The notes beneath the pieces were generated by a model. That model saw only the letters and a list, made by a program, of their open reading frames with translations. It was not told where the DNA came from and did not search any database. Positions 25,771 through 49,100 of a stretch of DNA of 64,000 nucleotides are shown in pieces; position 1 is the stretch's first letter, and each line of letters opens with the position of its first letter. Source of the stretch: a virus (Duplodnaviria > Heunggongvirae > Uroviricota > Caudoviricetes); the IMG/VR virus record IMGVR_UViG_3300031857_000009; one strand, given 5' to 3'. A program made the position numbers and the translations under genes.

Positions 25771-25773
25771 TTA

Positions 25774-26124: not shown

Positions 26125-26149
26125 TATTTCATAAATATAAATTCAATGT

Positions 26150-26998: not shown

Positions 26999-27061
26999 TT
27001 TTTAATTATTGATTTCTATATTTGATAAATATAAAAAATCCTATTTTATAGTAAAGTTATT

Positions 27062-29626
27062 TTAACATCCATCACCAATTGTATACTGAGTAGTTACCGA
27101 ACCAGAAACTACTTCATAAATTACACTTCCAATTTGAAAAAACCCATCAAATGTTGTTGTTAAGTTATTATTCGTGTAGATGGTAACACCTGAATCATAA
27201 ATATTGACCACATTTGGTAATGTGTATAATGTTACACTATACGAACCTGAACACAACACAACCCCACTACAGTAATTTGTACATCCAACCATATTCCATT
27301 CTTGATATGTCGGACTAGGTGTTGGTGTAACTGATGGAGTTTTAGTTGGGGTTGGGGTTTTAGTTAAAGTAGGGGTTGGGGTTGGGGAAACCGCTACCAA
27401 GGATGAACCACAAATTTCGTATAGAGCATTATCATTTATACCATATATTGTATTTGTCGGTACATACAAAGGTTTAGAAATACCGTCACCAATAATTTCA
27501 CTAAATATACCTGTTGTCGGGTCTAGAACACCTAAGAATCCATCTGACAATGTTGAATATCTGCTAATATATAATTTACCGTTATCAGGATTATATATCA
27601 TAGACCTTGTTGAGCCAAAAATCCAAGTTGCTCCCGATATTGAATTTAAAGTAAGTGTGGTGTTTGTTGCAACATCTATTTTGTATACCGTAGACGCACT
27701 AACTAAATAAATAATATTGTTCGTCACATCCAAAGCAATTAAACTTGCTGAGGTGATTGGTAGTGATGTACCATCTAACGAAATAGTATTACCAGAACAA
27801 GAATATATTCTACCACTCTGAGCGAAATATAATTTATTATTATTAGGATTGTAAACAGTCGCTTCAGGGTTTGATAAAGTTATACCTGTAATTTGGTTTG
27901 TAAAAGTATCTGTTGAACCATCTATGACACTAATTTGTGAAACTGAAAAATTTCCACCTGTTTGACTAAATGCATAAATTTTATTTAAAACAGAATTATA
28001 TTCAATTTTTCCTAAACCTGATGTTATTCCCGAAATTGATATTGACGATGTTGTGTTTGTGTTTAAATTTCTTATTAACATTTTAACAGGAAATGATGAT
28101 TCCCAACTGTATAATTTGTTGTTAGTTGAGTTATATCCTAATAATAAACTACTTCCTGACCATGTAAATTCATTTGTTAAACTTGTTGAATTTGGGACAA
28201 AAGATTGTACAACACTTGATGCGTTTAGAACGTATGCTTTGTTATTTGATGATGAATAAACCATACCTTGTCTACCAACGGCAGAATATGAATTCGTTGC
28301 GGCAAGAGTATTTCTAACTGAATCACTACAACCACCTGATGGTGTTGGGGTCAGGGTCGGGGTTACGGTATTAGTAGGTGTTACACTTGGGGTCGCAACT
28401 GGATTACCGGATGGACTTGGTGTTGGGGTTTTTGTTGGGGTCGGGGTTGGAGATACAATAGGTACAGGTAATGTAAAATTCACAGAATTAGTACACGTAC
28501 CAGTACTTTGAACTGTAAATGTTGTTATTGAATAACACACAAGTGCGGTATACCCAGATAATAATTGAGATGTTGTCACACCAGTTGCAATTAATACTAT
28601 AGTTCCTCCTGTTGTTGTTCCCGAAATATTATAAGGTCCGGCTTGCGTTAAAAAATAAATTGGGTGTAATGAGAATGTATATTGAGTACATCCTGTAGGT
28701 ACTAGTGAAGGTGATGGGGTTACTGTGGGTGTTACACTAACAGTTACCGAAGGTGTTAATGAAGGGGTATTTGTGGGTGTATTTGTTGGTGTAACCGAAG
28801 GTGTCGAACCTAACGTACTTGACGGTGTATTTGTGGGTGTATTTGTTGGTGTAACCGAAGGTGTCGGAGTTAGACTTGGAGTTTTTGTTGGAGTTACAGT
28901 ATTTGTTGGGGTTGGGGTTTCGGAAGGAGTTTCGGAAGGAGTTTGTGTTAATGTGGGTGTTGGAGTTGGGGTCACACTCGGACAAACTACAGTACAGAAA
29001 CCATTGAAAGATATCCCTGCATATGGGTAACTCGGGTCGTAACAAACATATGTTGGTGAAAATGAACCACTATGATATACACCACAACAGTCCGTATAAT
29101 ACCAATTTGGTGAATCGGTTATACCTGAGTAACATAAAGTTGGTGTGGGTGTTGGAGTAGGGGTAGGAGTTGGACTTGGTGGTGTTAAACAGTCAATACA
29201 ATTTGTAAAAAGAGCATTTTCAGAAATTAATTGTGCAACAGTATAATTGTAAGTGGTGCTACCAGTGCCTTGTTCATAAACTCCTGTATAGTTGTAACAT
29301 GTACCATCATAAGAAATTGTTGCACCTGTACTTTGGAAATACTGATTAACTTCTGAATTTTTTAAACCAAAGTAAACAAATGCCCCTGGTATTTGGCAAT
29401 GTTCAAATTGCCACCCATTAAAATCGTCGTTACATTGTTCACAGGTTGTATAACCACTAAAAATAACCGTACCTGACGGTCCACCTCCGACATTTCCTGT
29501 TGAAGACCAACATTGGTAATCAGCAAAAATCGTGTCACCCGATAATACTAAACTGTCATCGACGACAAAATCATAGTATGACGCTGGGTCTAAACAATTT
29601 TGAAATGTTATTATTTGTGCTGGCAT
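27062..29626 (-). CDS. Modular protein: Cys-rich modules, TP linkers and a 7-blade YncE/YVTN-like beta-propeller
   Basis: Seven repeats of the (Y/D)NxxNNKLY type (e.g. LGYNSTNNKLY, TVYNPNNNKLY, MIYNPDNGKLY); VIDGSTDT. Confidence 0.75.
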   Translation of the reverse strand: MPAQIITFQNCLDPASYYDFVVDDSLVLSGDTIFADYQCWSSTGNVGGGPSGTVIFSGYTTCEQCNDDFNGWQFEHCQIPGAFVYFGLKNSEVNQYFQSTGATISYDGTCYNYTGVYEQGTGSTTYNYTVAQLISENALFTNCIDCLTPPSPTPTPTPTPTPTLCYSGITDSPNWYYTDCCGVYHSGSFSPTYVCYDPSYPYAGISFNGFCTVVCPSVTPTPTPTLTQTPSETPSETPTPTNTVTPTKTPSLTPTPSVTPTNTPTNTPSSTLGSTPSVTPTNTPTNTPSLTPSVTVSVTPTVTPSPSLVPTGCTQYTFSLHPIYFLTQAGPYNISGTTTGGTIVLIATGVTTSQLLSGYTALVCYSITTFTVQSTGTCTNSVNFTLPVPIVSPTPTPTKTPTPSPSGNPVATPSVTPTNTVTPTLTPTPSGGCSDSVRNTLAATNSYSAVGRQGMVYSSSNNKAYVLNASSVVQSFVPNSTSLTNEFTWSGSSLLLGYNSTNNKLYSWESSFPVKMLIRNLNTNTTSSISISGITSGLGKIEYNSVLNKIYAFSQTGGNFSVSQISVIDGSTDTFTNQITGITLSNPEATVYNPNNNKLYFAQSGRIYSCSGNTISLDGTSLPITSASLIALDVTNNIIYLVSASTVYKIDVATNTTLTLNSISGATWIFGSTRSMIYNPDNGKLYISRYSTLSDGFLGVLDPTTGIFSEIIGDGISKPLYVPTNTIYGINDNALYEICGSSLVAVSPTPTPTLTKTPTPTKTPSVTPTPSPTYQEWNMVGCTNYCSGVVLCSGSYSVTLYTLPNVVNIYDSGVTIYTNNNLTTTFDGFFQIGSVIYEVVSGSVTTQYTIGDGC

Positions 29627-29670: not shown

Positions 29671-32600
29671 TTAACATGCTTCTCCACAAAATGTGTTACA
29701 ATAATCACCACAACCAGTACCGTATGTATATTGCGAAGTATATATTGGTGGTACGAAGTTTCCTCTAAACAATATAAACACATTTGTCACTCTCATAAGA
29801 CAAACGCTATAATTACCAGGGGCGTTATAACCTTGTGTTGTGAATGTACCATCACAACATTGGTATGCAAAGTATACTTGATTATCATCTGAGGCTGTTA
29901 AATCATTAATATCAACAAAAAAGTCTGTACACAAACAATCACCACAAGCACCATCATACGTTATCTCCCCACCATAAGGACCTAATACACTTGGAATACT
30001 ACATGAACATATCTCAATTGTACCACTTGCTGGGTACACATTTGGGTCAAGTATTTCTGTGGGTGTTCCTCCACCGCAACAAGTGGTATAGTTAACTATA
30101 TTACCAGGTCCTAATCCTGTAATAATATATGACTCACAAACACATGGTGGAGTTGGGGTTGGGGTCGGAGTTGGAGTTGGGGTTGGGGTTGATGACGGAT
30201 TTGAAACCGGAGATGGTGTTGGAGTGTTTGTTGGAGTGTTTGTTGGAGTTACAGTCTTGGTTGGTGTATTTGTAGGAGTATTGGTTGGTGTTAAAGTTGG
30301 AGTAACTGTCCTTGTTGGAGTATTTGTAGGGGTAAAGGTTGGAGTTACAGTCTTGGTTGGAGTATTTGTAGGGGTAAAGGTTGGAGTTACAGTCTTGGTT
30401 GGTGTATTTGTAGGGGTAAAGGTTGGAGTTACAGTCTTGGTTGGTGTATTTGTAGGAGTATTGGTTGGTGTTAAAGTTGGAGTAACTGTCCTTGTTGGTG
30501 TATTTGTCGGTGTTTTTGTTGGGGTTAAAGTTGGTGTAACTGTTGGTGTAACTGTTGGGGTTGGTGAAGGACAAGGGTGATAAGTTTCACATTCAGTACA
30601 TGTATTGTATGTACCATACGCAGTGATTGCGGAACCAGGTACTCCTGGTCCGACTGAGTTTGTAACAAAATAACAACAACCATTAATTGATATATAACGG
30701 TTTACTAAAAGATTTGGGTTAAATCCATTTTGACAACCAAATTGAATTGTATATTGTCCTGTTGTACCACAACATCCACATCTTTGTAAATCGAAAATCC
30801 AAGTGGCGCATGGGTTAGCTCCAATACATGTTTCACATGTATCAACACTAAATGATGATGGTGGATAATACCCGTCAACCCCACTAAAGTTTGGTGGTGA
30901 GTAGGTTTGACTATAACCTTCAACAAAATAACAACATCCATTTATAACAATAGTTTGACCTTGTGAAATACCGCTTTGAACATAGGTCAAATTAGTTGTT
31001 ATACTTAAATAAGAAATAGTATTACCTAAAATACCACCATCACAACATGGTAATAAATAAACATAACCAACCTGTAAGGATGGTGATGGTGTTACTGTGC
31101 TTGTTGGTGTTAATGTAGGAGTTAAAGTTGGTGTAACTGTTTTTGTTGGTGTATTGGTAGGGGTTACGGATGGTGTTCTCGTAGGAGTAACACTATTGGT
31201 TGGGGTGTTAGTCGGGGTTAAAGTTGGTGTAACTGTTCTTGTTGGTGTATTGGTAGGGGTTACCGTAGGGCTAACAGTGGCGGCTGGAGTTCTTGTTGGA
31301 GTAACAGTATTTGTTGGGGTATTGGTTGGTGTGAGAGTTGGTGTAACTGTTCTTGTTGGTGTATTGGTAGGGGTTACCGTATTCGTAGGTGTAACAGTTC
31401 TGGTTGGTGTTGGTGTCGGGGTTGGTGATGGACAAAAATTTAGAGTTTCTCCTAAACATTGTGCACAACTTGTCTGAACAGTAGTGTAAATCGTACCTCC
31501 AGGTCCTACCTGTTGCACATACGTTGCACATAACTGAATGTCTTGTAAATAAAATACCGTACCTAACAATGTACCTAATGGTACTTGACCATAATAAACA
31601 TTGGTGTCACCAGGACAACATGATTCAAATCTAGCAGCAACATACTGAGGACTAGCCGTTGGGGTTACTGTTTTGGTTGGTGTCAATGTTGGTGTAACAG
31701 TATTTGTTGGAGTGTTAGTTGGTGTTACGGTTGGACTAACTGTGGCAGCCGGTGTTCTTGTTGGTGTAACAGTATTTGTTGGGGTATTTGTTGGAGTTAC
31801 CGTAGGACTAACAGTGGCTGCTGGAGTTCTTGTTGGGGTATTGGTTGGGGTAACAGTATTTGTGGGGGTTACTGTGTTCGTTGGGGTATTGGTAGGTGTA
31901 TTTGTTGGTGTTAATGTTGGACTAACAGTAGCCGCTGGTGTTCTTGTTGGTGTAACAGTATTTGTTGGGGTATTTGTTGGAGTTACCGTATTTGTTGGAG
32001 TATTAGTTGGGGTGTTAGTTGGTGTTACAGTGTTGGTTGGTGTATTAGTTGGAGTTAAAGTTGGTGTAACTGTTCTTGTTGGTGTATTGGTAGGTGTAAC
32101 TGTATTCGTAGGGGTGACTGTATTAGTTGGAGTGTTGGTTGGAGTATTAGTTGGAGTTAAGGTTGGACTAACAGTGGCAGCTGGTGTTCTTGTCGGGGTT
32201 ACGGTATTAGTAGGGGTATTGGTTGGAGTTACCGTATTTGTTGGAGTATTAGTTGGGGTGTTGGTTGGAGTAACAGTGTTGGTTGGGGTGTTAGTAGGGG
32301 TGTTGGTCGGTGTAACTGTATTTGTTGGAGTAACAGTATTAGTAGGTGTGTTTGTTGGTGTGTTAGTCGGTGTTAATGTTGGACTAACAGTAGCCGCTGG
32401 TGTTCTCGTAGGAGTTACAGTATTGGTAGGAGTATTGGTAGGAGTAACGGTGTTTGTTGGGGTGTTTGTAGGAGTATTGGTTGGTGTTACAGTATTGGTT
32501 GGAGTATTGGTTGGTGTAAAAGTTGGTGTAACAGTTTTTGTTGGTGTATTAGTAGGAGTATTGGTCGGTGTGACAGTGTTGGTTGGTGTTACTGTATTTG

Positions 32601-35600
32601 TTGGAGTATTGGTTGGGGTATTGGTTGGTGTAAGGGTAGGACTAACAGTGGCTGCCGGAGTTCTTGTTGGAGTAACAGTATTGGTTGGGGTATTGGTTGG
32701 TGTAACAGTATTAGTCGGCGTATTGGTTGGAGTATTTGTTGGTGTGACTGTATTCGTTGGAGTGTTAGTAGGTGTAAAAGTTGGTGTGACGGTTCTTGTT
32801 GGTGTATTGGTTGGTGTAACGGTATTGGTTGGGGTGTTTGTGGGTGTAAGGGTAGGACTAACAGTGGCGGCCGGAGTTCTTGTTGGAGTCACTGTATTGG
32901 TCGGTGTGTTGGTGGGTGTGACTGTGTTAGTAGGTGTATTTGTAGGTGTATTAGTTGGTGTGACTGTATTTGTTGGAGTGTTTGTTGGGGTGTTTGTGGG
33001 TGTAACAGTATTAGTAGGAGTATTGGTTGGTGTTACAGTTTTGGTTGGAGTGTTAGTAGGTGTAACAGTATTAGTAGGTGTATTGGTAGGTGTATTGGTT
33101 GGTGTAACAGTATTCGTAGGAGTATTTGTTGGAGTATTTGTTGGACTAACAGTAGCTGCTGGTGTTCTTGTTGGTGTAACAGTATTAGTAGGAGTATTTG
33201 TTGGTGTAACAGTATTGGTTGGAGTATTAGTAGGTGTATTGGTTGGTGTAACGGTATTGGTTGGGGTGTTTGTGGGTGTGTTAGTCGGAGTTACTGTATT
33301 GGTTGGTGTGAACGTAGGTGTAACCGTTTTAGTTGGTGTGTTGGTTGGTGTAACAGTATTAGTAGGTGTATTGGTAGGTGTATTGGTTGGTGTAACAGTA
33401 TTCGTAGGAGTATTTGTTGGAGTATTTGTTGGACTAACAGTAGCTGCTGGTGTTCTTGTTGGGGTTACGGTATTAGTTGGGGTTACAGTGTTAGTCGGAG
33501 TGTTAGTTGGTGTATTCGTTGGTGTAACGGTATTTGTTGGGGTGTTAGTTGGTGTATTTGTTGGTGTTACTGTATTGGTAGGAGTATTTGTAGGACTCAA
33601 TGTAGGTGTAACTGTATTGGTCGGTGTTAAAGTTGGTGTAACTGTCTTTGTTGGTGTATTAGTAGGTGTCTGAGTTGGTGTAACTGTATTAGTCGGAGTA
33701 TTAGTAGGCGTAACAGTGTTTGTTGGAGTATTGGTTGGGGTATTTGTAGGAGTTACCGTATTGGTTGGGGTGTTTGTAGGAGTATTGGTAGGGGTGACAG
33801 TCTTGGTTGGAGTATTTGTGGGGGTAACAGTATTTGTTGGGGTAACCGTATTAGTTGGTGTGTTGGTTGGAGTATTTGTTGGGGTTAGAGTTGGTGTAAC
33901 AGTTTTTGTTGGTGTATTAGTTGGAGTAACGGTATTTGTTGGGGTATTGGTTGGGGTATTTGTAGGAGTTACCGTATTAGTCGGGGTATTAGTAGGCGTA
34001 ACAGTGTTTGTTGGAGTATTGGTTGGGGTGTTTGTAGGAGTTAAGGTAGGTGTAACAGTCTTGGTTGGGGTGTTGGTTGGTGTAACTGTATTAGTAGGTG
34101 TGTTAGTTGGTGTAACTGTATTAGTAGGTGTATTTGTTGGAGTATTTGTTGGGGTAACAGTATTCGTAGGAGTATTGGTCGGTGTTAATGTAGGAGTAAC
34201 AGTTCTTGTTGGAGTATTTGTTGGGGTAACAGTATTCGTAGGAGTATTAGTAGGTGTTAATGTAGGTGTAACAGTCTTGGTCGGAGTGTTTGTAGGAGTA
34301 TTTGTTGGTGTAACAGTGTTTGTTGGTGTTACCGTGTTTGTAGGAGTATTGGTAGGAGTGTTCGTTGGAGTATTGGTTGGTGTTAATGTAGGTGTAACAG
34401 TATTAGTAGGTGTTAATGTAGGTGTAACAGTCTTGGTTGGGGTGTTTGTAGGAGTATTTGTTGGTGTAACGGTGTTCGTAGGGGTAACTGTAGGACTCAA
34501 TGTAGGGGTTACAGTATTGGTCGGAGTATTAGTAGGTGTTAATGTAGGTGTAACAGTCTTGGTTGGTGTATTGGTTGGGGTAACCGTGTTAGTTGGTGTG
34601 TTGGTGGGTGTTACTGTATTAGTAGGAGTAACTGTAGGACTCAATGTAGGAGTTACAGTCTTGGTTGGTGTATTAGTGGGTGTGTTTGTTGGTGTAACAG
34701 TATTGGTTGGGGTAACCGTGTTAGTTGGTGTGTTGGTTGGAGTATTTGTTGGGGTATTGGTTGGGGTGACTGTCTTAGTCGGTGTATTAGTTGGGGTTAC
34801 TGTATTTGTTGGTGTAACCGTATTTGTTGGTGTATTTGTGGGTGTATTGGTTGGAGTTAAAGTTGGTGTTACAGTTTTTGTTGGTGTGTTGGTCGGTGTA
34901 ACTGTATTTGTTGGTGTATTTGTGGGTGTATTGGTCGGTGTAACTGTATTTGTTGGAGTATTTGTTGGGGTGTTAGTGGGTGTAACAGTATTAGTAGGAG
35001 TATTTGTGGGCGTATTGGTCGGTGTAACTGTATTTGTCGGAGTATTGGTTGGGGTATTTGTTGGTGTAACGGTGTTCGTAGGGGTAACTGTAGGACTCAA
35101 TGTAGGGGTTACAGTGTTTGTAGGAGTGTTTGTGGGAGTGTTGGTTGGGGTAACTGTATTAGTAGGAGTAACTGTAGGGGTGACAGTTTTAGTAGGTGTA
35201 TTAGTTGGAGTATTGGTAGGGGTTACAGTATTAGTAGGGGTATTTGTAGGAGTTAATGTAGGAGTTACAGTCTTGGTTGGGGTATTTGTTGGTGTAACGG
35301 TGTTCGTAGGGGTAACTGTAGGACTCAATGTGGGAGTCACCGTATTGGTCGGAGTATTGGTGGGGGTTACTGTATTAGTAGGAGTATTAGTAGGAGTATT
35401 GGTTGGGGTTACCGTGTTGGTCGGAGTTAAAGTTGGTGTAACAGTTTTTGTTGGTGTATTGGTTGGAGTTACAGTGTTCGTAGGGGTATTTGTTGGTGTT
35501 AGAGTTGGTGTAACAGTTTTTGTTGGTGTATTAGTAGGAGTTACGGTGTTAGTTGGAGTGTTGGTAGGTGTGTTAGTTGGTGTTACAGTGTTGGTTGGTG

Positions 35601-38600
35601 TATTAGTAGGTGTCTGAGTTGGTGTAACTGTCTTGGTTGGGGTATTAGTTGGCGTTACAGTATTGGTTGGGGTTACCGTATTTGTAGGAGTTACGGTATT
35701 GGTTGGAGTAACAGTATTAGTCGGCGTTACTGTGTTAGTTGGGGTGTTAGTGGGGGTAACAGTATTAGTAGGAGTAACGGAATTCGTGGGAGTGTTTGTA
35801 GGAGTGTTTGTTGGTGTTAATGTAGGTGTTACGGTTTTTGTTGGTGTATTGGTTGGGGTTACTGTATTTGTAGGAGTATTTGTAGGAGTTAAGGTAGGTG
35901 TAACAGTATTGGTTGGGGTATTGGTAGGTGTGTTGGTCGGGGTGACTGTGTTAGTTGGTGTAACTGTATTAGTTGGTGTATTCGTAGGGGTTTGAGTTGG
36001 TGTAACAGTATTGGTTGGGGTATTTGTTGGAGTTAAAGTTGGTGTGACAGTTTTTGTTGGTGTATTGGTAGGAGTTACGGTATTTGTAGGAGTATTAGTC
36101 GGTGTCTGAGTTGGTGTTACGGTGTTTGTTGGAGTATTGGTTGGAGTTAATGTAGGTGTTACAGTCTTGGTTGGTGTATTAGTTGGTGTTACAGTATTAG
36201 TAGGTGTAACAGTATTAGTAGGTGTAACAGTGTTTGTAGGTGTAACGGTATTGGTGGGAGTCACCGTATTAGTTGGTGTGTTAGTTGGGGTTACGGTGTT
36301 GGTTGGAGTAACGGTATTTGTTGGGGTGTTTGTAGGAGTGTTTGTTGGTGTTAATGTAGGTGTTACGGTTTTTGTTGGTGTATTGGTTGGTGTAACAGTA
36401 TTTGTTGGTGTGTTGGTGGGTGTGTTGGTGGGTGTTACAGTATTAGTTGGGGTATTAGTAGGACTCAATGTTGGGGTAACAGTATTCGTTGGTGTTACAG
36501 TATTGGTTGGAGTGTTTGTTGGGGTATTTGTTGGGGTTACGGTATTAGTAGGGGTATTGGTTGGAGTTAATGTAGGAGTAACAGTCTTGGTTGGTGTATT
36601 AGTTGGCGTAACAGTGTTTGTTGGGGTGTTAGTTGGGGTATTTGTAGGGGTTACCGTATTGGTCGGAGTGTTGGTTGGTGTTAATGTAGGAGTAACAGTC
36701 TTGGTTGGAGTGTTTGTTGGGGTAACAGTATTGGTTGGAGTCACTGTATTAGTTGGTGTGTTGGTCGGTGTATTTGTTGGGGTTAAAGTTGGTGTGACAG
36801 TTTTTGTTGGTGTATTGGTTGGGGTTACTGTGTTAGTAGGAGTGTTTGTAGGTGTATTAGTAGGGGTATTAGTATTAGTCGGGGTATTGGTCGGTGTAAC
36901 TGTATTCGTTGGAGTAACGGTAGGAGTTAATGTAGGAGTAACAGTCTTGGTTGGTGTATTAGTAGGTGTGTTAGTAGGGGTTACCGTATTGGTTGGGGTG
37001 TTAGTCGGGGTAACTGTGTTAGTTGGTGTGTTAGTTGGTGTGTTGGTCGGAGTTACCGTATTTGTTGGAGTATTTGTAGGGGTTAAGGTAGGCGTAACAG
37101 TTCTTGTTGGAGTATTGGTCGGTGTAACTGTATTCGTTGGAGTTACAGTGTTAGTGGGGGTTACGGTATTGGTCGGCGTTACAGTGTTAGTCGGTGTTAC
37201 CGTATTAGTTGGAGTATTTGTTGGCGTAACAGTGTTTGTTGGAGTTACAGTGTTTGTGGGGGTATTGGTTGGAGTATTGGTGGGAGTCTGAGTTGGGGTG
37301 ACTGTCTTAGTTGGGGTATTGGTCGGGGTAACTGTGTTGGTTGGAGTAACGGTATTTGTTGGGGTATTGGTCGGGGTATTGGTTGGAGTTAAAGTTGGCG
37401 TAACAGTGTTTGTTGGTGTATTGGTAGGTGTTACAGTATTAGTTGGGGTATTGGTTGGAGTTAAAGTTGGTGTAACAGTTTTTGTTGGTGTATTAGTTGG
37501 CGTTACAGTATTAGTTGGTGTGTTAGTTGGTGTGTTTGTTGGGGTTACCGTATTGGTCGGAGTTACCGTAGGACTCAATGTAGGAGTTACAGTATTAGTT
37601 GGTGTGTTGGTTGGTGTGACTGTATTCGTTGGAGTGTTAGTAGGTGTCTGAGTTGGGGTAACAGTATTTGTTGGAGTATTGGTAGGAGTATTGGTAGGGG
37701 TTACAGTATTGGTAGGAGTATTGGTAGGGGTTACAGTATTGGTAGGAGTATTCGTTGGGGTTAGAGTTGGTGTAACAGTTTTGGTAGGAGTATTAGTAGG
37801 GGTTACAGTATTTGTAGGAGTTACCGTAGGACTCAATGTGGGAGTCACCGTATTAGTTGGTGTATTGGTTGGGGTTACGGTGTTGGTTGGAGTGTTTGTA
37901 GGTGTATTAGTTGGAGTAACAGTATTTGTAGGTGTATTAGTCGGGGTATTGGTTGGTGTTACGGTGTTGGTTGGGGTTAAAGTTGGTGTGACAGTTTTTG
38001 TTGGTGTATTGGTTGGCGTAACAGTGTTTGTCGGAGTATTAGTTGGGGTGTTGGTTGGTGTATTAGTTGGAGTTACAGTGTTGGTTGGAGTGTTAGTTGG
38101 TGTTACGGTATTGGTTGGGGTTACTGTGTTTGTAGGAGTATTGGTCGGTGTATTCGTTGGGGTTAGAGTTGGTGTAACAGTTTTGGTAGGAGTATTAGTA
38201 GGAGTTATAGTATTCGTTGGTGTGTTGGTCGGTGTAACAGTATTAGTTGGGGTGTTGGTTGGGGTGTTGGTTGGAGTAACAGTATTAGTTGGAGTATTAG
38301 TTGGGGTGTTGGTTGGAGTAACAGTGTTTGTTGGGGTTACCGTAGGGCTCAATGTGGGAGTTACAGTTTTAGTAGGGGTGTTTGTTGGAGTTACGGTGTT
38401 GGTTGGGGTATTGGTTGGTGTGTTAGTTGGTGTAACTGTATTAGTGGGAGTCACTGTAGGGCTCAATGTTGGAGTTACAGTGTTGGTTGGGGTGTTAGTT
38501 GGTGTATTGGTTGGTGTAACTGTATTCGTTGGAGTGTTTGTAGGAGTGTTGGTTGGGGTTACAGTATTAGTTGGTGTGTTGGTTGGAGTTAATGTAGGTG

Positions 38601-41600
38601 TAACGGTTCTTGTGGGGGTGTTGGTAGGGGTTACGGTATTAGTTGGAGTGTTTGTTGGGGTATTTGTTGGGGTTACGGTATTAGTTGGAGTGTTTGTTGG
38701 GGTATTTGTTGGGGTTACGGTATTAGTAGGGGTATTGGTTGGGGTATTTGTTGGGGTTACGGTATTAGTAGGGGTATTGGTTGGAGTTAATGTAGGTGTA
38801 ACGGTTCTTGTGGGGGTGCTGGTAGGGGTTACGGTGTTAGTTGGAGTGTTGGTAGGTGTGTTAGTTGGCGTAACGGTGTTAGTTGGAGTCACAGTCGGAC
38901 TCAATGTAGGTGTTACTGTATTTGTTGGGGTGTTGGTAGGGGTATTTGTAGGTGTTACGGTGTTGGTAGGTGTAACTGTTGGACTCAATGTAGGAGTCAC
39001 AGTATTTGTTGGTGTATTTGTAGGTGTGTTAGTTGGGGTAACGGTATTAGTTGGAGTGTTGGTTGGTGTATTTGTTGGTGTTACTGTGTTAGTAGGGGTA
39101 TTTGTGGGAGTATTTGTAGGTGTTACGGTGTTGGTAGGTGTAACTGTTGGACTCAATGTGGGAGTCACAGTTTTAGTAGGAGTATTTGTAGGTGTTACGG
39201 TGTTGGTAGGTGTGTTTGTTGGGGTATTGGTTGGAGTTACCGTATTCGTCGGAGTATTAGTAGGGGTGTTAGTTGGAGTTACAGTGTTTGTTGGTGTGTT
39301 TGTAGGGGTATTGGTAGGTGTTACTGTGTTAGTAGGAGTATTTGTAGGAGTATTGGTTGGTGTTACGGTATTTGTAGGAGTTACAGTTGGTGTTAATGTA
39401 GGAGTCACCGTGTTTGTTGGGGTATTGGTGGGAGTATTTGTAGGGGTTACCGTATTTGTCGGTGTATTGGTTGGTGTTAAAGTAGGTGTAACCGTTCTTG
39501 TTGGAGTGTTAGTTGGTGTAACCGTATTTGTAGGAGTATTAGTAGGGGTGTTGGTAGGGGTTACAGTATTCGTAGGGGTATTGGTTGGTGTATTCGTGGG
39601 TGTGACAGTATTAGTTGGTGTTACGGTTGGACTCAGTGTAGGGGTTACTGTATTGGTTGGAGTGTTAGTTGGGGTATTTGTAGGTGTAACTGTATTTGTT
39701 GGGGTGTTTGTAGGTGTATTAGTTGGTGTAACTGTATTAGTTGGTGTATTCGTAGGGGTTTGAGTTGGTGTAACAGTATTTGTAGGAGTCACAGTCGGAC
39801 TCAATGTGGGAGTCACGGTCTTAGTCGGTGTGTTAGTAGGGGTAACTGTGTTCGTAGGAGTTACCGTAGGACTCAATGTAGGGGTGACAGTGTTGGTTGG
39901 AGTATTGGTTGGTGTGTTGGTTGGTGTTACGGTGTTTGTAGGAGTTACTGTATTAGTAGGAGTGTTCGTAGGGGTATTGGTAGGGGTTACTGTGTTAGTT
40001 GGAGTGTTAGTAGGTGTATTGGTAGGAGTAACTGTATTGGTTGGTGTATTTGTGGGTGTAACAGTGTTAGTTGGTGTGTTAGTTGGTGTGTTGGTAGGAG
40101 TTACGGTGTTAGTTGGAGTATTTGTAGGTGTCTGAGTTGGTGTAACTGTATTCGTAGGGGTTACAGTCGGACTCAGTGTAGGTGTTACTGTGTTAGTCGG
40201 GGTAACTGTAGGTGTATTTGTTGGAGTTACAGTGTTGGTTGGGGTGTTGGTTGGAGTTACGGTGTTCGTTGGAGTATTGGTTGGTGTATTAGTTGGGGTT
40301 ACTGTATTAGTTGGAGTATTGGTTGGGGTATTGGTTGGAGTTACAGTCTTGGTTGGTGTGTTGGTTGGTGTTACGGTGTTTGTTGGAGTATTGGTTGGAG
40401 TGTTTGTGGGGGTGTTGGTTGGTGTTACGGTGTTTGTTGGGGTGACTGTATTGGTTGGAGTGTTTGTTGGGGTGTTGGTGGGAGTATTTGTAGGGGTTAC
40501 CGTATTTGTCGGTGTATTGGTTGGTGTTAAAGTAGGTGTAACCGTTCTTGTTGGAGTTACAGTCGGACTCAATGTTGGAGTTACTGTATTGGTTGGTGTT
40601 AGTGTCGGGCTTAATGTTGGTGTAACAGTACTAGTTGGGGTATTGGTTGGGGTGTTGGTTGGAGTTACCGTATTGGTTGGTGTATTCGTCGGTGTATTTG
40701 TAGGTGTAACAGTATTCGTAGGTGTTACAGTTGGAGTATTGGTTGGGGTTACTGTGTTAGTTGGAGTATTGGTGGGGGTATTGGTTGGAGTAACAGTATT
40801 TGTTGGTGTCACAGTCGGACTCAATGTTGGTGTAACAGTTTTTGTTGGGGTATTTGTCGGTGTCTGAGTTGGTGTTACGGTATTGGTTGGCGTATTGGTA
40901 GGAGTATTGGTTGGCGTATTTGTTGGAGTTACGGTATTAGTTGGTGTGACTGTATTGGTTGGGGTGTTAGTCGGCGTGTTCGTAGGGGTGTTGGTTGGTG
41001 TTACCGTATTTGTTGGTGTATTAGTAGGTGTGTTAGTAGGTGTTACTGTATTTGTAGGCGTGTTCGTGGGAGTCTGAGTTGGTGTTACAGTGTTAGTAGG
41101 AGTGTTAGTTGGCGTGTTAGTGGGTGTAACAGTATTAGTAGGAGTCACCGTTGGACTCAATGTAGGTGTAACAGTATTGGTTGGTGTGTTGGTCGGAGTG
41201 TTGGTAGGAGTTACAGTATTAGTAGGAGTCACCGTTGGACTCAATGTAGGTGTAACTGTATTTGTTGGGGTATTTGTTGGGGTATTGGTAGGAGTTACTG
41301 TATTAGTCGGAGTGTTGGTCGGGGTGTTGGTTGGAGTAACAGTGTTGGTGGGAGTATTGGTTGGAGTGTTAGTTGGTGTATTTGTTGGGGTTACGGTGTT
41401 GGTTGGAGATACCGTATTTGTAGGAGTATTGGTTGGAGTGTTAGTTGGGGTTAGTGTTGGGGTTACGGTGTTTGTTGGGGTATTGGTAGGTGTATTGGTT
41501 GGTGTAACGGTATTTGTAGGAGTAACAGTGTTGGTTGGAGTATTGGTAGGACTTAATGTTGGCGTATTAGTTGGGGTTACGGTGCTGGTTGGAGTCACTG

Positions 41601-44600
41601 TTGGACTCAATGTAGGTGTAACTGTATTTGTTGGTGTGTTGGTAGGAGTGTTTGTAGGAGTCACAGTATTAGTAGGAGTCACAGTTGGACTTAATGTGGG
41701 AGTTACTGTATTAGTTGGAGTGTTGGTAGGTGTGTTAGTTGGGGTTACTGTATTTGTCGGGGTATTGGTTGGGGTATTTGTTGGTGTAACGGTGTTGGTC
41801 GGAGTGTTTGTGGGAGTATTTGTAGGAGTTACTGTGTTCGTAGGAGTTACTGTAGGACTCAATGTTGGTGTTACTGTATTTGTTGGGGTGTTAGTAGGAG
41901 TGTTTGTTGGAGTCACCGTGTTTGTTGGGGTATTGGTGGGAGTATTTGTTGGTGTAACAGTATTTGTTGGGGTGTTAGTTGGGGTGTTGGTAGGAGTTAC
42001 CGTATTGGTTGGTGTGTTAGTTGGGGTGTTGGTAGGAGTTACCGTATTGGTTGGTGTGTTAGTAGGAGTGTTTGTTGGTGTAACAGTATTGGTTGGTGTG
42101 TTAGTAGGAGTGTTTGTTGGTGTAACAGTATTGGTAGGAGTTACAGTTGGGGTGTTGGTTGGAGTTACAGTATTAGTAGGCGTATTGGTAGGAGTATTAG
42201 TTGGAGTTACTGTATTTGTAGAAGTATTGGTAGGAGTATTGGTAGGGGTGACAGTATTGGTGGGCGTATTGGTAGGAGTATTGGTTGGGGTGACTGTATT
42301 TGTTGGAGTATTTGTTGGGGTGTTAGTTGGAGTTACTGTATTTGTAGGAGTATTGGTAGGAGTATTGGTAGGGGTGACAGTATTGGTGGGGGTGTTTGTA
42401 GGAGTATTGGTAGGGGTGACAGTATTGGTTGGAGTATTAGTTGGGGTGACTGTATTTGTTGGAGTATTTGTTGGGGTGTTGGTAGGGGTGTTGGTAGGAG
42501 TTACAGTATTGGTTGGAGTAACTGTATTGGTTGGAGTGTTTGTCGGGGTATTTGTAGGTGTCAGTGTCGGTGTTACGGTATTTGTTGGAGTATTAGTAGG
42601 AGTGTTAGTTGGTGTAACCGTATTTGTTGGTGTATTTGTGGGTGTATTGGTAGGAGTAACTGTATTGGTAGCCGTATTGGTAGGAGTGTTGGTTGGTGTA
42701 TTAGTTGGTGTGACTGTATTGGTCGGAGTTACCGTCGGTGTATTTGTTGGGGTTACGGTATTGGTAGGGGTTACTGTTGGTGTATTCGTAGGCGTGTTTG
42801 TTGGGGTTACGGTATTTGTTGGAGTATTAGTGGGGGTATTCGTAGGTGTATTGGTTGGTGTTACGGTGTTAGTTGGGGTATTTGTAGGGGTTTGAGTTGG
42901 TGTAACGGTATTGGTTGGAGTCACTGTTGGACTCAATGTTGGCGTTACCGTATTGGTAGGAGTATTAGTTGGCGTATTGGTAGGAGTAACTGTGTTGGTT
43001 GGGGTGTTGGTAGGAGTGTTAGTTGGTGTTACAGTATTAGTTGGTGTGTTAGTTGGTGTGTTTGTTGGTGTTACGGTGTTCGTAGGGGTGTTAGTAGGTG
43101 TCAGTGTTGGGGATACCGTATTGGTAGGAGTGTTAGTTGGTGTATTTGTAGGGGTTACCGTATTGGTAGGAGTATTAGTTGGTGTATTTGTAGGAGTAGC
43201 AGTATTAGTAGGGGTATTTGTTGGAGTATTGGTCGGTGTTACAGTGTTTGTTGGAGTGTTGGTTGGTGTTACAGTGTTTGTTGGGGTGTTTGTCGGAGTG
43301 TTGGTTGGGGTATTCGTTGGTGTTACAGTATTTGTAGGGGTTACGGTGTTGGTTGGAGTATTGGTGGGGCTTAATGTTGGGGTATTTGTAGGGGTTACGG
43401 TGTTGGTTGGGGTCGCTGTTGGAGTCAATGTAGGTGTAACTGTATTGGTTGGGGTATTGGTAGGAGTATTGGTTGGGGTAACAGTATTGGTAGGAGTAAC
43501 TGTTGGACTCAATGTAGGAGTAACTGTATTGGTAGGAGTGTTTGTTGGTGTATTGGTTGGTGTTACAGTATTAGTTGGAGTATTTGTTGGAGTTAAAGTT
43601 GGTGTAACAGTTTTTGTTGGTGTATTAGTTGGGGTGTTAGTAGGAGTTACTGTATTGGTTGGTGTGTTTGTGGGAGTATTGGTTAATGTAACGGATGGTG
43701 TTACAGTGTTGGTTGGTGTTACCGTTGGAGTATTGGTGGGTGTTGGGGTGCTCGTTGGAGTTGGTGAGGGTAACATTGTATAATCAATGTCACAAGAAGG
43801 TGCTGGTGTTGGTGAAACCGTCACAGTTACACTTGGTGTATTTGTTGGAGTTACAGTATTGGTTGGAGTTACAGTATTTGTCGGGGTGTTTGTGGGGGTA
43901 ACTGTATTGGTTGGAGTCACTGTTGGACTCAATGTTGGTGTTACAGTGTTAGTAGGAGTGTTGGTCGGCGTGTTAGTTGGAGTATTGGTTGGTGTTACGG
44001 TGTTAGTTGGTGTTACCGTAGGACTCAATGTAGGAGTCACAGTATTGGTAGGTGTATTGGTTGGAGTATTGGTTGGTGTTACGGTGTTAGTTGGTGTTAC
44101 CGTAGGACTCAATGTAGGAGTCACAGTATTCGTTGGTGTGTTTGTAGGTGTATTAGTCGGAGTTACGGTGTTGGTTGGAGTTACGGTATTTGTGGGAGTG
44201 TTTGTAGGAGTGTTGGTAGGAGTGTTTGTTGGAGTTACGGTGTTGGTTGGGGTATTGGTTGGGGTATTGGTTGGTGTAACGGTATTTGTAGGAGTATTTG
44301 TAGGTGTCTGAGTTGGAGTTACTGTATTCGTCGGTGTGTTTGTTGGGGTGTTGGTAGGAGTTACGGTATTGGTAGGACTTAATGTTGGAGTGTTAGTTGG
44401 AGTATTTGTTGGAGTTACTGTGTTGGTTGGAGTATTCGTAGGTGTAACCGTATTTGTTGGTGTATTAGTTGGGGTGTTTGTAGGTGTATTAGTTGGTGTC
44501 ACAGTTTCTGTTGGAGTCACTGTAACAGTATTGGTTGGTGTGACTGTATTGGTAGGGGTTACGGTGTTGGTTGGTGTAAGTGTTGGTGTTTCTGTGGGAG

Positions 44601-46089
44601 TATTTGTTGGTGTGTTGGTGGGGGTATTTGTTGGTGTTTCGGTTGGTGTATTTGTAGGTGTATTAGTTGGAGCTACCGTATTTGTTGGAGTTACAGTTGG
44701 AGTGTTAGTTGGGGTAACCGTTGGTGTAACAGTATTGGTAGGAGTATTGGTTGGGGTTTGAGTTGGTGTAACGGTTGCAGTATTTGTTGGTGTTAGGGTA
44801 GGTGTTTCAGTTTGTGTTACAGTGGGTGTATTGGTTGGAGTTACAGTATTGGTTGGAGTTACAGTTGAGGTATTAGTCGGAGTGTTAGTTGGTGTTATGG
44901 TGTTGGTTGGGGTATTGGTAGGTGTTTCGGTAGGGGTAACGGTTGGACTCAGTGTTGGTGTTACTGTGTTAGTCGGAGTATTAGTTGGGGTGTTGGTTGG
45001 TGTTTCGGTAGGGGTAACGGTTAGGGTTACGGTGTTGGTTGGAGTATTGGTTGGTGTTTCGGTTGGTGTTTCGGTTGGTGTATTAGTTGGGGTAACAGTA
45101 TTGGTTGGAGTTACAGTTGGGGTAACAGTTGGGGTAACAGTTGGAGTTACGGTGTTGGTTGGGGTATTGGTTGGTGTTTCGGTTGGTGTTTCGGTTGGTG
45201 TATTAGTTGGGGTAACAGTATTTGTTGGGGTGTTAGTGGGTGTTTCAGTCGGTGTATTAGTTGGGGTATTGGTTGGTGTTTCGGTAGGGGTTACTGTATG
45301 AGTTGGTGTATTGGTAGGTGTTTCGGTAGGGGTTACCGTATTTGTTGGAGTTACAGTTGGAGTTTCGGTAGGGGTAACTGTATTTGTTGGGGTGTTGGTA
45401 GGTGTTTCAGTTGGTGTATTGGTTGGGGTTACCGTATTTGTTGGGGTTACAGTTGGAGTTTCGGTCGGAGTAACAGTTGGTGTCTCGGTTGGTGTAACTG
45501 TATTCGTAGGAGTTACAGTAGGTGTGTTGGCTGGTGATTCGGTTGGAGTTACTGTGTTAGTTGGGGTAACTGTAGGAGTTTCAGTTGGGGTAACCGTTGG
45601 GGTATTTGTTGGGGTATTGGTTGGAGTTACTGTGTTAGTTGGAGTAACTGTAGGAGTTTCAGTTGGGGTAACTGTAGGCTCGTTTGTTGGAGTATTAGTC
45701 GGAGTTACGGTATTCGTAGGAGTATTTGTTGGAGTGATAGTATTGGTTGGGGTAACAGTAGGTGTTTTTGTAACCGTAGGTGTAACAGTAGGGGTTTTGG
45801 TAACTGTTGGGGTTGGGGTATTTGAAGTAAAGGTTGTTGGTGTTGGTGTTAATGATGGTGTAAGTGTTGGTGAAGGTGTAGGTGAAGGTGTAGGGCAAGG
45901 AATCTCAGCCACACAAGTTTTATCAAGTGACGGAAAATAAACTGAGTAAGTACCTAAGTAGTAGTTTGTGTCGTAATAATATGGCATCACGACAGTACCT
46001 AAATTCAAGGTACCGCCAGTACAAGGATAAAATGTGATAACACCAATTTCACCATCAAAATTACCTGTGTTTATTTTTATTAATGCCAT
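29671..46089 (-). CDS. Giant 5472-aa Thr/Pro/Asn/Val repeat protein with a small N-terminal domain and Cys-rich C-terminal modules
   Basis: Single uninterrupted 16.4-kb ORF; amino-acid repeat conserved while synonymous positions vary; upstream promoter-like motif; embedded in the tail gene cluster. Confidence 0.85.
31670..45900 (-). repeat. ~14.2-kb coding low-complexity repeat (TPTN 12-nt and TVTPTN 18-nt units in 30- and 42-nt combinations)
   Basis: Read directly. Exact tandem copies include the 30-mer at 37681-37740 and the 42-mer at 38629-38712; one unique island at about 43768-43800 (SCDIDYTML). Confidence 0.95.
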
Positions 46090-46127: not shown

Positions 46128-46158
46128 AAAATATACTCATTTATTCGGGTATTGTCAA
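46128..46158 (-). promoter_or_regulatory. Putative promoter of the giant repeat gene
   Basis: Minus strand TTGACA-N17-TATATT, also readable as TTG-N20-TATATTTT, about 40 nt upstream of the ATG. Confidence 0.65.
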
Positions 46159-46179: not shown

Positions 46180-49100
46180 TCATGGACAATCAAAAATGGA
46201 ACTACTTAATTCCTCATTAGTTGGTTCTGTAGGACAATGGTTGGCATCGATATAATATTGACCGAGGTTGAATCCAATATTTGGATGTTTATCGTATTTG
46301 TGTTTCATCAGAATTTGGTCGCTGTTATTTCCATTGAAAACAACAACAAATTCATCAGTTAGTGGTGTATTGTCTAATTCAAAATTTAGATTGAAGTATA
46401 ATCCTGTATCGCAATAATTTAAGTCGACATCAATTACTTCTATGGTTTTACCATATTTGTTTATTAAATAATCCCCATGGTTATATAATTCTTTCGGATG
46501 GTCACAACAAGGTTCAATAAAATCTGTTGGTTTTTTTTGTAATTCCTCTGGGAACCTATCGTCAAAAAAGTAAACACTATTTGTAGGTGTTCCAAAATTT
46601 TCAATGATTCTATTTGTATAAACTCTTAGTTGTGTTGTTGGTAAAACTTCAAAAACTTCATAAGTATTATTTTGGGTTAATCCTGTAATGATACTTTTCT
46701 TGATTGATGCTAAACATTCAATGTCTGTAATTTCAAGTTTTTGATAGTTGTACGTAAATGAATACCCTGATACAGGTCCATTCACAATTTGTTGGTGACT
46801 ATATTCTGTACATTGTTTGTAAGATGCAGATAAAACATATTCCCCAACATTTAAATCACAAACACTTTTACCACTTATCGTACCACCACTAATATAACTT
46901 TCAATATTGTCATCTGTAGTTTGGTTGTCAATGGTTAATCCGCTATCAACTACTAAAACTATAGAGTCACATTTTAAACCATAGTTAAAGTTTGATTTGT
47001 ATTCAACTTTTGGTTGTATTGTGTAACCTGTGTAATTGTCACAATATGTTGCACCTGAAACAACTGAAATTGGGGATGATATTGTTCCTTGGTAACCAAC
47101 AATACTAAATAATTCTACGTGACTTTTTCCTGATGGTGTTGGACATGGGTCATGTTCAATTTTGGGTTGTAGACCTTCAATTTTGAATTTTACTTCTTTA
47201 TTTGCTGCATCTACAATATTAAAATCTATTACATCATTTTCTGAAAAACCAGTTAATTTATATACACAATCACTAACTTTTTGAATGTAAACATCCGCAT
47301 TTTCATTTGTTCCACTTACACAATTAGCATAAATGTTAAATGGCCATGTTGAACCTTGTTGGATACCTGTTTTGTATCCAATTACTTCAAAAAACACATC
47401 ACTCACTAATGTACATCCACTGTTTGAGTCGCAATAAACGGTATTATCAGTATAAACTTTAACACTGATTCCATTTGTATTTTTTGTGATTTTGTAATCG
47501 GCATCAAATCGATAATCAAAATAGTCGACCACTGAACATTCGTTTGGACCTAATTTTACGGATGAAAACTTAACTTTTTCAACACCATTTTCATCAGTGT
47601 ATGTTGTGTATTTTATTAATGGTATTGTTTCTGAAAAATATGTTTGGCCTGTGGTTCCCGTGAAAGCAGAATAGGGTTCATACCCTGCACTATTTCTTGT
47701 AATAGTTACGTCATCAATCAATACAGATAACGCCGATAACCATAGTTCTTTAATTTTAGTAACATCAGGTTCAAGATAATCTTTATAATCACATATTAAG
47801 GAAAGATTTACCGTATCACCACTGGTGACCCCACTTGTACATCCTGTAAATGGTTGTGCATCAAATAATTTTGCACTGTTTGAAGTGTTACTTGTTCCAC
47901 TAACAATCACATACATAGAGGATGTTAGACCCGTGTAGTCGGCCCCACCATAAACTGTTCCATCAATTTCAATTACAGGATAGTAAGTAACACCTGTAAG
48001 GTTTATTAAACCTCTAAAATTATTTTCTTCACCTAAAATATTTTCTAAATCTTCCTCAATTACATTTTCAAAATCAGGGTATAGTTCCTCAATAAATTCT
48101 AATGGTTGACAATCATATCTATATTGATATTTTGGTCTACCAAACACGTTATTTTCTATTAAATTACCGCCGGTCCATTGAGTGGTTGATGGTACTAATT
48201 GTTCAACTAATTGTGGCCAATAAGGTGATAATTTATTAACAAATTCAATAACATTTATTTGATTATATGGTGTAAAACCTGTTGTTTGTGATATATAATC
48301 TCTATAGACATCTTCTAATTGAATATAATTTTTTTTGTAACGAATTTTGTTAGAATTTGTTACAAGTCCATGAATAAAGGTGTCTAAAAATTCAGCAAAA
48401 GTTTTACCTGTTTGGGGTAATAAAGTATTTGTACCAAAACTTATTAATAATTCTCTACTTTGTCTAAAGATATCATAATCTATACCTCGTGATGGTGAGA
48501 TATAAATTCCAATGTTTTTTCTATTTAAAATTAATAAATAATCATCCTCAATTGGTTTTCCGTCTTTATTATCGACCGCGGAAACCAATTCATAACCGGT
48601 ATCTAAACCTGGTAATGTTCTATATAAATCAAAGTATTCTTCTCCGTATGTGTAGTTTTTATTCTTTGTTTTAATTGTTTTGGTGTTACCCGTTAGTATT
48701 GAGTTACTACTGTCTAAAACGAGTGGAGTACGGTGTGATAATGTAATATCGTACCATCCTGAACCTTTACCAAAGAATATGTTTTCAGTTTCGTTATATG
48801 CTCTTCTTGGTAGTCCAGTTTTTTCGTCTACAGGGTAACCCTCTCTGTCAAATGTTGTTGACGCTGAGTAGTAAACTTTAGAATATGTGAAACCTGTACT
48901 ATCAAAGGTGGCGTAAGAATATCTTTTGTTACCTTGAATCGCATCGTATATGTCTTGTTGTAAATTAAAACTAGATGGAATTGACGTTACTTTATAAATG
49001 TATTCATCAATCCTAATCAAAGGCTCGGGTGCCCCCAAAAATTTTAAAAAGAAATCAATAGAGGATTTTGTTCCTTTTGATTTATAAATGTGAGCAAGAT

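Follow-up and report, generated by a model that had tools for sequence, protein, structure and literature searches.

Within a 64,000-nucleotide stretch of DNA from a tailed phage (IMG/VR virus record IMGVR_UViG_3300031857_000009; the whole of this stretch is termed here the window), a single gene (29671-46089, minus strand) encodes a giant protein of 5,472 amino acids (aa), most of which is a copolymer of strictly alternating type, ([S/T]-X)n, whose register runs unbroken over thousands of residues. The gene and its pattern are real: the pattern is under selection, the gene lies within the tail module, and its conserved N-terminal domain precedes a spacer and a tip that vary among related phages. 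We consider it somewhat probable that the giant protein is a virion-anchored, flexible capture line or spacer, that is, a 'line and hook' appendage.

According to this proposal, the conserved 66-residue N-terminal domain would dock on a conserved part of the virion (the baseplate or the fibre apparatus), the tract would form an extended, non-globular and very hydrophilic spacer, and distal Cys-rich beta modules would bind something on or around the host. Such a spacer would enlarge the search volume of the binding modules (its reach being tens to hundreds of nm when relaxed and up to about 1.2-1.6 µm under tension), could carry the modules across a capsule or slime layer and, after first contact, would hold the particle close to the cell pending engagement of the contractile tail. 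The spacer length and the end modules are swapped or resized quickly among related phages, as host-range parts would be. Attachment to the virion, the choice of anchor end, a role in binding, the number of copies and possible glycosylation are things that we infer. Coordinates below are those of the window and, unless marked otherwise, features lie on its minus strand.

The giant gene and its alternating tract

The gene is a single ATG-started open reading frame (ORF) of 5,472 codons (16.4 kb), corresponding to a protein of 564 kDa; the 5,472-residue protein that a preliminary description had placed at these coordinates is thus real and occupies one open frame. No second frame spans the interval: the same strand holds one further ORF of at least 100 residues (146 aa), and the opposite strand is broken up into 19 ORFs of Gly/Val type (109-694 aa), all of them side effects of the repeat. 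The gene takes up 10.5% of the 155,713-bp contig that constitutes the virus record, and the whole protein is composed largely of Thr (45.1%), Pro (20.0%), Asn (14.5%) and Val (8.6%). Because these residues are encoded by ACN, CCN and AAY codons, the template strand is G+T-rich for 14 kb, and the plus strand of 30001-46000 is strongly skewed (GC skew +0.38 to +0.75; AT skew -0.18 to -0.44); G+C content is 41-45% over this interval as against 28-40% outside it.

The N-terminus is a conserved domain of globular type (45892..46089; residues 1-66, with 3 Cys), which is the proposed virion anchor and which delimits more exactly the domain of about 65 residues described earlier. It is followed by a first part of the spacer (43815..45891; residues 67-758), consisting of ([S/T]-X)n; by a conserved island (43764..43814; residues 759-775), a 17-mer that contains one Cys and ends in (M/R/K)LPSPTP; and by a second, much longer part of the spacer (31660..43763; residues 776-4810), built of PTNT and PTNTVT units. 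The core of the island, SCDIDYTML (residues 765-773), had been noticed previously and is indeed present, but its limits are 43771-43797 rather than 43768-43800. Beyond the spacer lie Cys module A (31432..31653; residues 4813-4886), which has 6 Cys and a CxxC at its end; a Thr/Pro linker of about 115 residues (31081..31431; residues 4887-5003); Cys modules B and C (30571..31080; residues 5004-5173), which are paralogues sharing the motif INGCCYFV; a second Thr/Pro linker, of about 140 residues (30154..30570; residues 5174-5312); and a C-terminal Cys-rich domain of 160 residues (29671..30153, including the stop codon; residues 5313-5472), which is the proposed binding tip. The giant protein shows no signal-like start, transmembrane segment or LPxTG motif (its maximum 19-residue hydropathy is 1.25) and, having neither signal peptide nor membrane segment nor wall anchor, is therefore made in the cytoplasm.

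The tract comprises residues 67-4810, that is, 4,744 residues, and retains one [S/T] register throughout, island included. Thr recurs at position i+2 for 2,232 of its 2,301 Thr; Thr-Thr occurs once and Pro-Pro never; and the spacings from one Pro to the next are all even (4 residues in 621 cases, 6 in 357, and 2, 8 or 10 in 21 cases together). The X positions are occupied by Pro (42%), Asn (32%), Val (18%), Leu (3.6%) and Lys (1.7%); the commonest units are PTNT (436 copies) and PTNTVT (287 copies), with PAATVS units near the end of the tract, and there is no period beyond 4 or 6 residues. Charged residues are few and placed unevenly: all 21 Glu fall within the first 500 residues, and Lys/Arg variants mostly within the distal half, the tract having 57 Lys and Arg in total and hence few sites for trypsin. 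The preliminary description, which spoke of a Thr-Pro-Thr-Asn repeat over some 4,700 residues in which Thr fills almost every other position and Pro-Pro hardly occurs, was thus right on both counts and understated the regularity of the pattern; only the formula was too narrow, the rule being ([S/T]-X)n, in a single phase, rather than TPTN.

The same description assumed a polyproline-II conformation and, from it, a rod about 1.5 µm long. The tract, however, has a period of 2, not the period of 3 that would mark a designed polyproline-II surface. Thr, Val and Pro favour an extended backbone, and Pro at every 4-6 residues blocks both sheets and helices; because the spacer is a single chain without a folded repeat, a flexible coil is to be expected instead of a rod. 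At 0.25-0.34 nm per residue the chain measures 1.2-1.6 µm along its contour, and the root-mean-square end-to-end distance of a worm-like chain is about 50 nm for an assumed persistence length of 1 nm and about 170-210 nm for assumed persistence lengths of 10-15 nm. Hence the figure of 1.5 µm is right for a chain pulled to its contour under tension and wrong as a resting reach, for which the worm-like chain gives about 50-210 nm; a stiff rod is unsupported, and 'line' or 'leash' describes such a chain better.

Were the chain a beta strand, Thr at each second residue would line up on one face, and the tract could then be an array that binds ice or a mineral crystal through that face, a reading to which we give almost no credence. 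Thr content alone favours it. On the other side, Pro recurs each 4 or 6 residues, Gly turns and any longer period are absent, orthologues freely swap Asn for Val, Ser or Ile and Thr for Ser, and the terminal domains and Cys modules belong to no Pfam family; known Thr-array ice binders, moreover, are rigid folded solenoids, which also counts against this reading.

Repetition at the protein level has left few traces at the DNA level. Every 125-mer of the giant gene is unique, the longest exact repeat is 116 nt, and 3% of 51-mers and 12% of 31-mers recur inside the gene. When the gene is divided into 300-nt pieces, their best paralogous matches are 73-85% identical, which is the level (about 79%) that identical peptides in unrelated codons would give. 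Likewise, 90 copies of one identical 23-residue peptide show a third-position identity of 0.384, as against 0.377 expected for random codons, regardless of the distance between the copies. The real tract nonetheless contains more short exact repeats than do codon-shuffled versions of it (longest exact repeat 116 nt versus 32-47 nt; 31-mer uniqueness 0.87 versus 0.996). It follows that the tract grew by duplication and that its copies have since drifted nearly to silent-site saturation; active scrambling of codons against recombination was considered and, for the same reason, rejected. One open frame and one register over 14.2 kb imply, in turn, that the tract is under selection. The earlier contention that maintaining 16 kb of such sequence implies strong selection holds for the pattern; it does not hold for the length, inasmuch as the spacers of relatives range from 0 to about 2,500 residues.

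Relatives at the same genomic slot

Relatives were recovered using the conserved 1,414-aa protein encoded directly upstream of the giant gene (46180..50424), which forms the upstream edge of a variable fibre island. It yielded 79 IMG/VR loci at 48-100% identity, and the full set contains 84 loci (L001-L084). Tracts of the ([S/T]-X)n type that are at least 60 residues long and contain Pro occur in 43 of the 84, and 16 of the 84 contigs end inside one, so that Thr-X tracts recurrently and systematically break the contigs of this phage group.

The slot following the 1,414-aa gene holds the same N-terminal domain in 16 relatives, at 65-96% identity (mean column identity 82% over 17 sequences), and what follows this domain differs widely. 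At L081, where the gene order is that of the window (592, 274, 422, 306, 1,413 and then 224 aa), the slot encodes a protein of 224 aa in which the N-terminal domain is fused to an unrelated 160-residue domain with no tract at all. P0051 (L083 and L084; 398 aa) consists of the N-terminal domain, a 118-residue tract and a different end domain. At L010 the slot encodes 2,737 aa, comprising tracts of 542 and 1,436 residues, the island, modules A, B and C plus one extra module, and the C-terminal domain; at L001 it encodes 2,940 aa, with a 2,528-residue tract, no island, and only module A and the C-terminal domain. The spacer lengths at this one slot are therefore 0, 118, about 1,980 (L010), about 2,520 (L001) and 4,744 residues (the window). 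L010, which was assembled independently, repeats the order of parts found in the window, its extra module standing before the C-terminal domain.

Conservation falls off sharply from the flanks and the head of the protein to its tip. At L001 the flanking 1,414- and 716-aa genes are 97% and 96% identical to those of the window, the N-terminal domain is 87% identical, and the C-terminal domain is only 38% identical behind a tract of TPSV/TPTSSV type; over L001 and L010 together, the C-terminal domain reaches only 34-38% identity, as against 80-97% for the upstream neighbour. Module A, which has no Pfam family, is 47-49% identical in these two relatives; modules B and C are 58% and 49% identical, respectively, in L010 and absent from L001, and P0005 is the only longer homologue found. 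The fibre island as a whole, which lies between the 1,414- and 716-aa genes (22849-46089), measures 23.2 kb in the window, 13.1 kb in L001 (G001) and 15.7 kb in L010 (G002). The giant protein thus combines, as do tail-fibre proteins, a conserved N-terminus (65-96%) with a variable distal part (34-38% in the C-terminal domain), and host-range cassettes that move by recombination usually show just this combination of conserved flanks and head with a free spacer and tips that change fast.

The spacers themselves are not alignable among relatives at the DNA level. Nevertheless, Pro fills nearly the same share of X positions (0.42, 0.44 and 0.41) in the three complete orthologues, even though the remaining X residues differ (Asn in the window, Val/Ser in L001, Val/Ile/Thr in L010) and Thr and Ser also interchange. 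Because alternation, single phase and Pro share are all retained in the three orthologues, selection acts upon the physical type of the chain rather than upon its sequence. An exception is the 17-mer of the island, which also occurs within the otherwise unalignable spacers of L010, L014 and L017, though not in L001 and others, and which sits 318-766 residues from the start across four lineages. To judge by its recurrence, the island looks like a functional short motif, and it may perhaps serve as a cross-link or docking point.

These comparisons bear on the suspicion that the gene is real but that its 14-kb tract was inflated or mis-joined during assembly, a possibility that we regard as quite improbable. 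The 16 related contigs that end inside such tracts indicate that assemblers struggle with them, and the recurrent 31-mers and 51-mers would branch small-k assembly graphs. The mid-tract sequence is found in no other assembly searched (an exact 40-mer had no match among the viral and metagenome contigs searched), and the N-terminal domain occurs in no protein of 3,009-9,576 aa within a set of 5.8 billion proteins. The sole other sample with the window allele is represented by L080 (ENA ERZ4239552), which is 100% identical over about 1.9 kb of the 3' end of the gene and breaks off inside the tract; relative to window positions 31100-31270, within the linker between modules A and B, it has a 114-nt (38-residue) in-frame deletion between direct repeats, which reflects either natural length polymorphism or collapse in an assembly of 3.6x coverage. 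Against an artefact stands, first, the uniqueness of the 125-mers: assembly looping would leave long exact copies, and none longer than 116 nt is present, nor do paralogous pieces exceed the identities given above, which makes misassembly unlikely. Random mis-joins, moreover, would often break the frame or the [S/T] phase, both of which are intact over 14.2 kb, and complete orthologues with tracts of 1,980 and 2,520 residues occur in other assemblies. The preliminary description had itself raised misassembly as a concern; the unique 125-mers, the unbroken frame and the same order of parts in L010 go far to answer it from sequence, and we see very little chance that the length of the giant tract is seriously wrong.

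The C-terminal domain belongs to a family of 42 clusters among 1.84 billion representatives, most of whose members are gene fragments at contig ends, several of them preceded by Thr/Pro tracts; within this family the Cys positions are conserved, and these Cys may form disulfides after lysis or bind metal. An AlphaFold2 model of the domain based on 29 sequences is two-lobed and all-beta, with a predicted local distance difference test (pLDDT) score of 89.9; a first model, based on 3 sequences (pLDDT 67), was discarded. Searches with the accepted model found no convincing match in the PDB using Foldseek (best E 0.37), nothing better than E 0.08 among AlphaFold database clusters, a best Z of 4.0, to generic beta-sandwiches (Ena1C, STIV A223, PA-IIL lectin and C2 domains), in a wide VIA-align search, and, as the nearest shapes in a protein atlas, viral hypothetical proteins at a template-modelling (TM) score of 0.55. 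A search of the atlas by features likewise returned only viral hypothetical clusters (scores of at most 0.88), and the C-terminal 477 residues had no tblastn match among GenBank phages. A three-copy complex prediction for the N-terminal domain scored 0.00 without controls and is uninformative on oligomeric state.

Genomic neighbourhood and competing readings

By gene content the window genome is that of a T4-like myovirus, the genes listed here all being on the minus strand. Upstream of the giant gene lie baseplate wedge genes like gp25 (61138-61590) and gp6 (59304-61136), and further T4-like genes encode SbcCD-like gp46/47, a primase, a class I ribonucleotide reductase and a head maturation protease; a sigma-70-family sigma factor is encoded at 10679-11491 (phrog_351, E 1.7e-52), and the contig has no tRNA genes. 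From the wedge genes down to position 20661 there runs a block that encodes, in order, proteins of 1,374, 586, 277, 388, 305, 1,414, 5,472, 854, 282, 116, 973 and 716 aa. The giant gene is therefore located within a tail/baseplate block, on the same strand as the wedge genes. The nearest cultured relatives of the window phage are remote: its wedge protein shares 26-29% identity with the counterparts in a 484-kb uncultured phage, Flavobacterium phage immuto and Microcystis phage Mel-JY01. A megablast search with the 18 kb upstream found no match.

Pfam and PHROG scans of the four unique parts of the giant protein and of twenty-odd neighbours assigned no family of known function to any protein of the fibre island. 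The PHROG matches near the giant gene are on neighbours only and to families of unknown function, and those to phrog_15511 look like matches to Thr/Pro tracts and were set aside. The 1,414-aa neighbour has no Pfam, PHROG, PDB-sequence or GenBank-phage (tblastn) match, and a PDB sequence search with the 1,374-aa neighbour found nothing.

Directly downstream of the giant gene are four further modular genes (22849..29626), encoding proteins of 854, 282, 116 and 973 aa. In the 854-, 282- and 973-aa proteins, Cys-rich modules and other domains are joined by Thr/Pro linkers of 20-200 residues; the 116-aa protein has no such linker. Since these three smaller neighbours are built alike, the giant gene is an extreme member of a local design and not an isolated oddity. 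When its Cys modules were compared by phmmer with every ORF of the contig, they matched only themselves, the one hint of kinship with the modules of the neighbours being their shared Cys pattern. Within the 854-aa neighbour (27062-29626), residues from about 440 to 740 carry a repeated NNKLY/NNKIY pattern between two Thr/Pro linkers; this region has no Pfam match, and its repeat suggests a beta-propeller. The 116-aa ORF (25774-26124; MPSLVTYSVTISNFSG...) corresponds to the N-terminus of proteins of 381-501 aa in other phages (P0030, P0039), which end in the C-terminal domain family of the giant protein; hence domains have been shuffled among fibre genes.

The 90-nt gap upstream of the giant gene contains a promoter-like sequence, TTGACA-17-TATATT (46130..46158; 11 of 12 matches), to which the sigma-70-family factor of the phage may relate; promoter-like sites in the region are no commoner than in shuffled sequence, which makes this site weak evidence. 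Several structural genes (those starting at 22811, 26124, 26998, 29626, 51341, 59251 and 61590, all on the minus strand) are preceded on the coding strand, 10-30 nt from the start codon, by a TATTTAT(A)-like motif, a possible late-promoter element of the window phage. The T4 late promoter box TATAAATA is not enriched (9 occurrences versus 9.2 expected).

The conserved N-terminal domain, the variable spacer, the fast-changing Cys-rich ends and the location within the tail block all fit the tether proposed in the preliminary description; the stiffness attributed to it does not. Several points weigh against a virion-anchored line. The protein is that of an uncultured phage and is known here from its gene alone, on a contig that CheckV puts at about 50% of the genome, and the exact length of the tract rests on one assembly. 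The N-terminal domain and the end modules match no family or fold of known function, so that the labels 'anchor' and 'binder' derive from position and conservation pattern only. The rod-less 224-aa protein in a relative's slot implies that the spacer is dispensable for a working particle. Known tail fibres, moreover, are trimeric folded shafts, and to our knowledge a single-chain low-complexity spacer of such size has not been shown on any phage.

Nothing physically ties the giant protein to the virion, and it could instead be a non-virion protein, either intracellular or released at lysis, where it might act as a polymer that gels or glues together lysate, debris and cells, or as a decoy. In keeping with this, a 564-kDa chain would be costly on every particle, and the candidate filament protein of phage phiCbK (considered below) likewise escaped virion proteomics (PMC3556154), a parallel that can be cited for a protein outside the particle. 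We nonetheless think a non-virion role unlikely: the gene sits within the baseplate/fibre block, in the same strand and run as structural genes, and a strongly conserved N-terminal domain followed by variable distal parts usually signals docking on a conserved structure.

A more serious alternative, although we doubt it, is that the tract is chiefly an acceptor of O-linked glycans, that is, a glycosylated brush or shield, a 'viral mucin' forming a hydrated coat on the particle. Such a coat could prevent sticking to non-host particles, aggregation, and digestion or grazing, and the end modules would matter less. The composition is indeed mucin-like: the tract contains 2,363 Ser+Thr (2,301 Thr and 62 Ser) and 1,000 Pro (about 21%) in 4,744 residues, so that Ser, Thr and Pro make up a majority (71%), in tandem units and in a non-globular chain, as in the Pro/Thr/Ser (PTS) domains of mucins. 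N-x-S/T sequons are nearly absent (2 in 4,744 residues), for which reason any sugar would be O-linked. The contig also encodes at least five GT2-type glycosyltransferases and a UDP-GlcNAc 2-epimerase. The epimerase gene lies together with four of the GT2 genes in an operon that starts just outside window position 1. The fifth GT2 (G000:C1:135504-136241 (+), outside the window; 245 aa; PF00535, 78.5 bits) lies far from this glycan operon and adjoins a calcineurin-like phosphoesterase gene.

On the other hand, no transferase adjoins the giant gene. GT60 (PF11397) was not matched on the contig, though that search was equally silent in control genomes and so is uninformative; the match to GT4 (GtfA/B-like, PF00534) scored 17.6 bits, under the cut-off of 26.4 bits, on a contig representing about half of the genome. 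A shield would leave the conserved, fast-evolving Cys-rich end modules without a role, and the glycan clusters of jumbo phages have been interpreted instead as a means of altering the surface polysaccharide of the host (PMC7824862), which also counts against it. Glycosylation of the tract, a putative acceptor of the GT2 enzymes, is plausible and would stiffen the chain. The two readings overlap, in that a glycosylated tether would be both. One may accordingly entertain, tentatively and with doubt still prevailing, the broader idea that large phages of lake bacteria make their own mucin: a chain weighing some 0.5 MDa and offering about 2,360 sites for O-glycosylation, to which phage enzymes would add sugar in the cytoplasm and which, attached to the baseplate, would form a line of micron contour whose length (0 to about 4,700 residues at one locus) is tuned to host slime or host density.

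Comparison with known stalks and implications

Judged by sequence, the giant protein falls in no described family; by analogy, it would work like a stalked adhesin. The closest parallel in design is with the serine-rich repeat (SRR) adhesins (PsrP, GspB, Fap1 and SraP). PsrP of pneumococcus has 4,776 aa, with 539 SAS[A/E/V]SAS[T/I] repeats; its stalk, of (S-X)n type and glycosylated, is about 4,300 residues long, and the length of the stalk is required for the binding region to clear the capsule (PMC2920850). As in these adhesins, the giant protein has a stalk of several thousand residues in which a hydroxy residue alternates with X, with an anchor proposed at one end and a folded binder beyond the other. 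Unlike them, it has Thr rather than Ser, Pro fills 42% of its X positions, and it is a viral, cytoplasm-made protein without signal peptide, LPxTG motif or accessory Sec system. The features that define SRR proteins, namely a Ser-X repeat, a signal peptide together with LPxTG, and a GtfA/GtfB (GT4) pair above cut-off, are thus lacking, and the likeness is an analogy without any sequence relationship.

Among phages, the head filament of phiCbK, which is about 200 nm long and flexible, mediates first attachment, and its candidate gene, gp76, encodes a 2,799-aa low-complexity protein that grew by tandem duplication, has a lectin-like domain and lies in a structural module (PMC3556154). The giant protein would similarly be a long, flexible first-contact appendage formed by a huge low-complexity protein, proposed in the present case from genes alone; PsrP and this filament together lend credibility to the proposed mechanism. 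It differs in that gp76 is Gly/Ala-rich and located near head genes, whereas the giant protein is Thr/Pro-rich, and its spacer is 1.7 times the length of the whole of gp76.

The Pro/Thr linkers of cellulases and other glycoside hydrolases and the PTS domains of mucins are likewise extended, non-globular spacers that are commonly O-glycosylated. Such linkers, however, span tens of residues and the window tract thousands, and glycosylation of mucins and Pro/Thr linkers occurs in the secretory pathway, whereas no secretory route is evident for a cytoplasm-made phage protein. The extenders of MpIBP, SiiE and Ebh are long spacers that project terminal ligand-binding domains; these are made of folded Ig-like or helical repeats, unlike the window spacer, which has no folded repeat unit. 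Full-text literature searches turned up no paper on phage Thr/Pro tracts of this size, which is absence of evidence only. A long low-complexity stalk bearing binding modules is already known; what is new is the scale, the single-phase rule, the constant Pro share and a length series from 0 to 4,744 residues.

As the gene shows, a T4-like genome that is proficient in recombination can retain 4,744 residues of protein repeat while hardly any repeat survives at the DNA level. If the line is in fact a phage-made mucin, it would represent a new class of virion appendage, that is, one that is single-chain, unfolded and length-tunable. In dilute water, infection by phages is limited by how often they meet a host, and in models the virion is a sphere of about 100 nm; a line measuring 50-200 nm at rest, with a contour of more than 1 µm, would alter the capture cross-section. 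Spacer length would then be a simple evolvable dial that can be read directly from sequence, and the natural series at one slot (0, 118, about 2,000, about 2,500 and 4,744 residues) allows the idea to be tested by comparing relatives. Such an appendage, if it exists as proposed, would add a physical variable, reach, to the evolution of phage host range.

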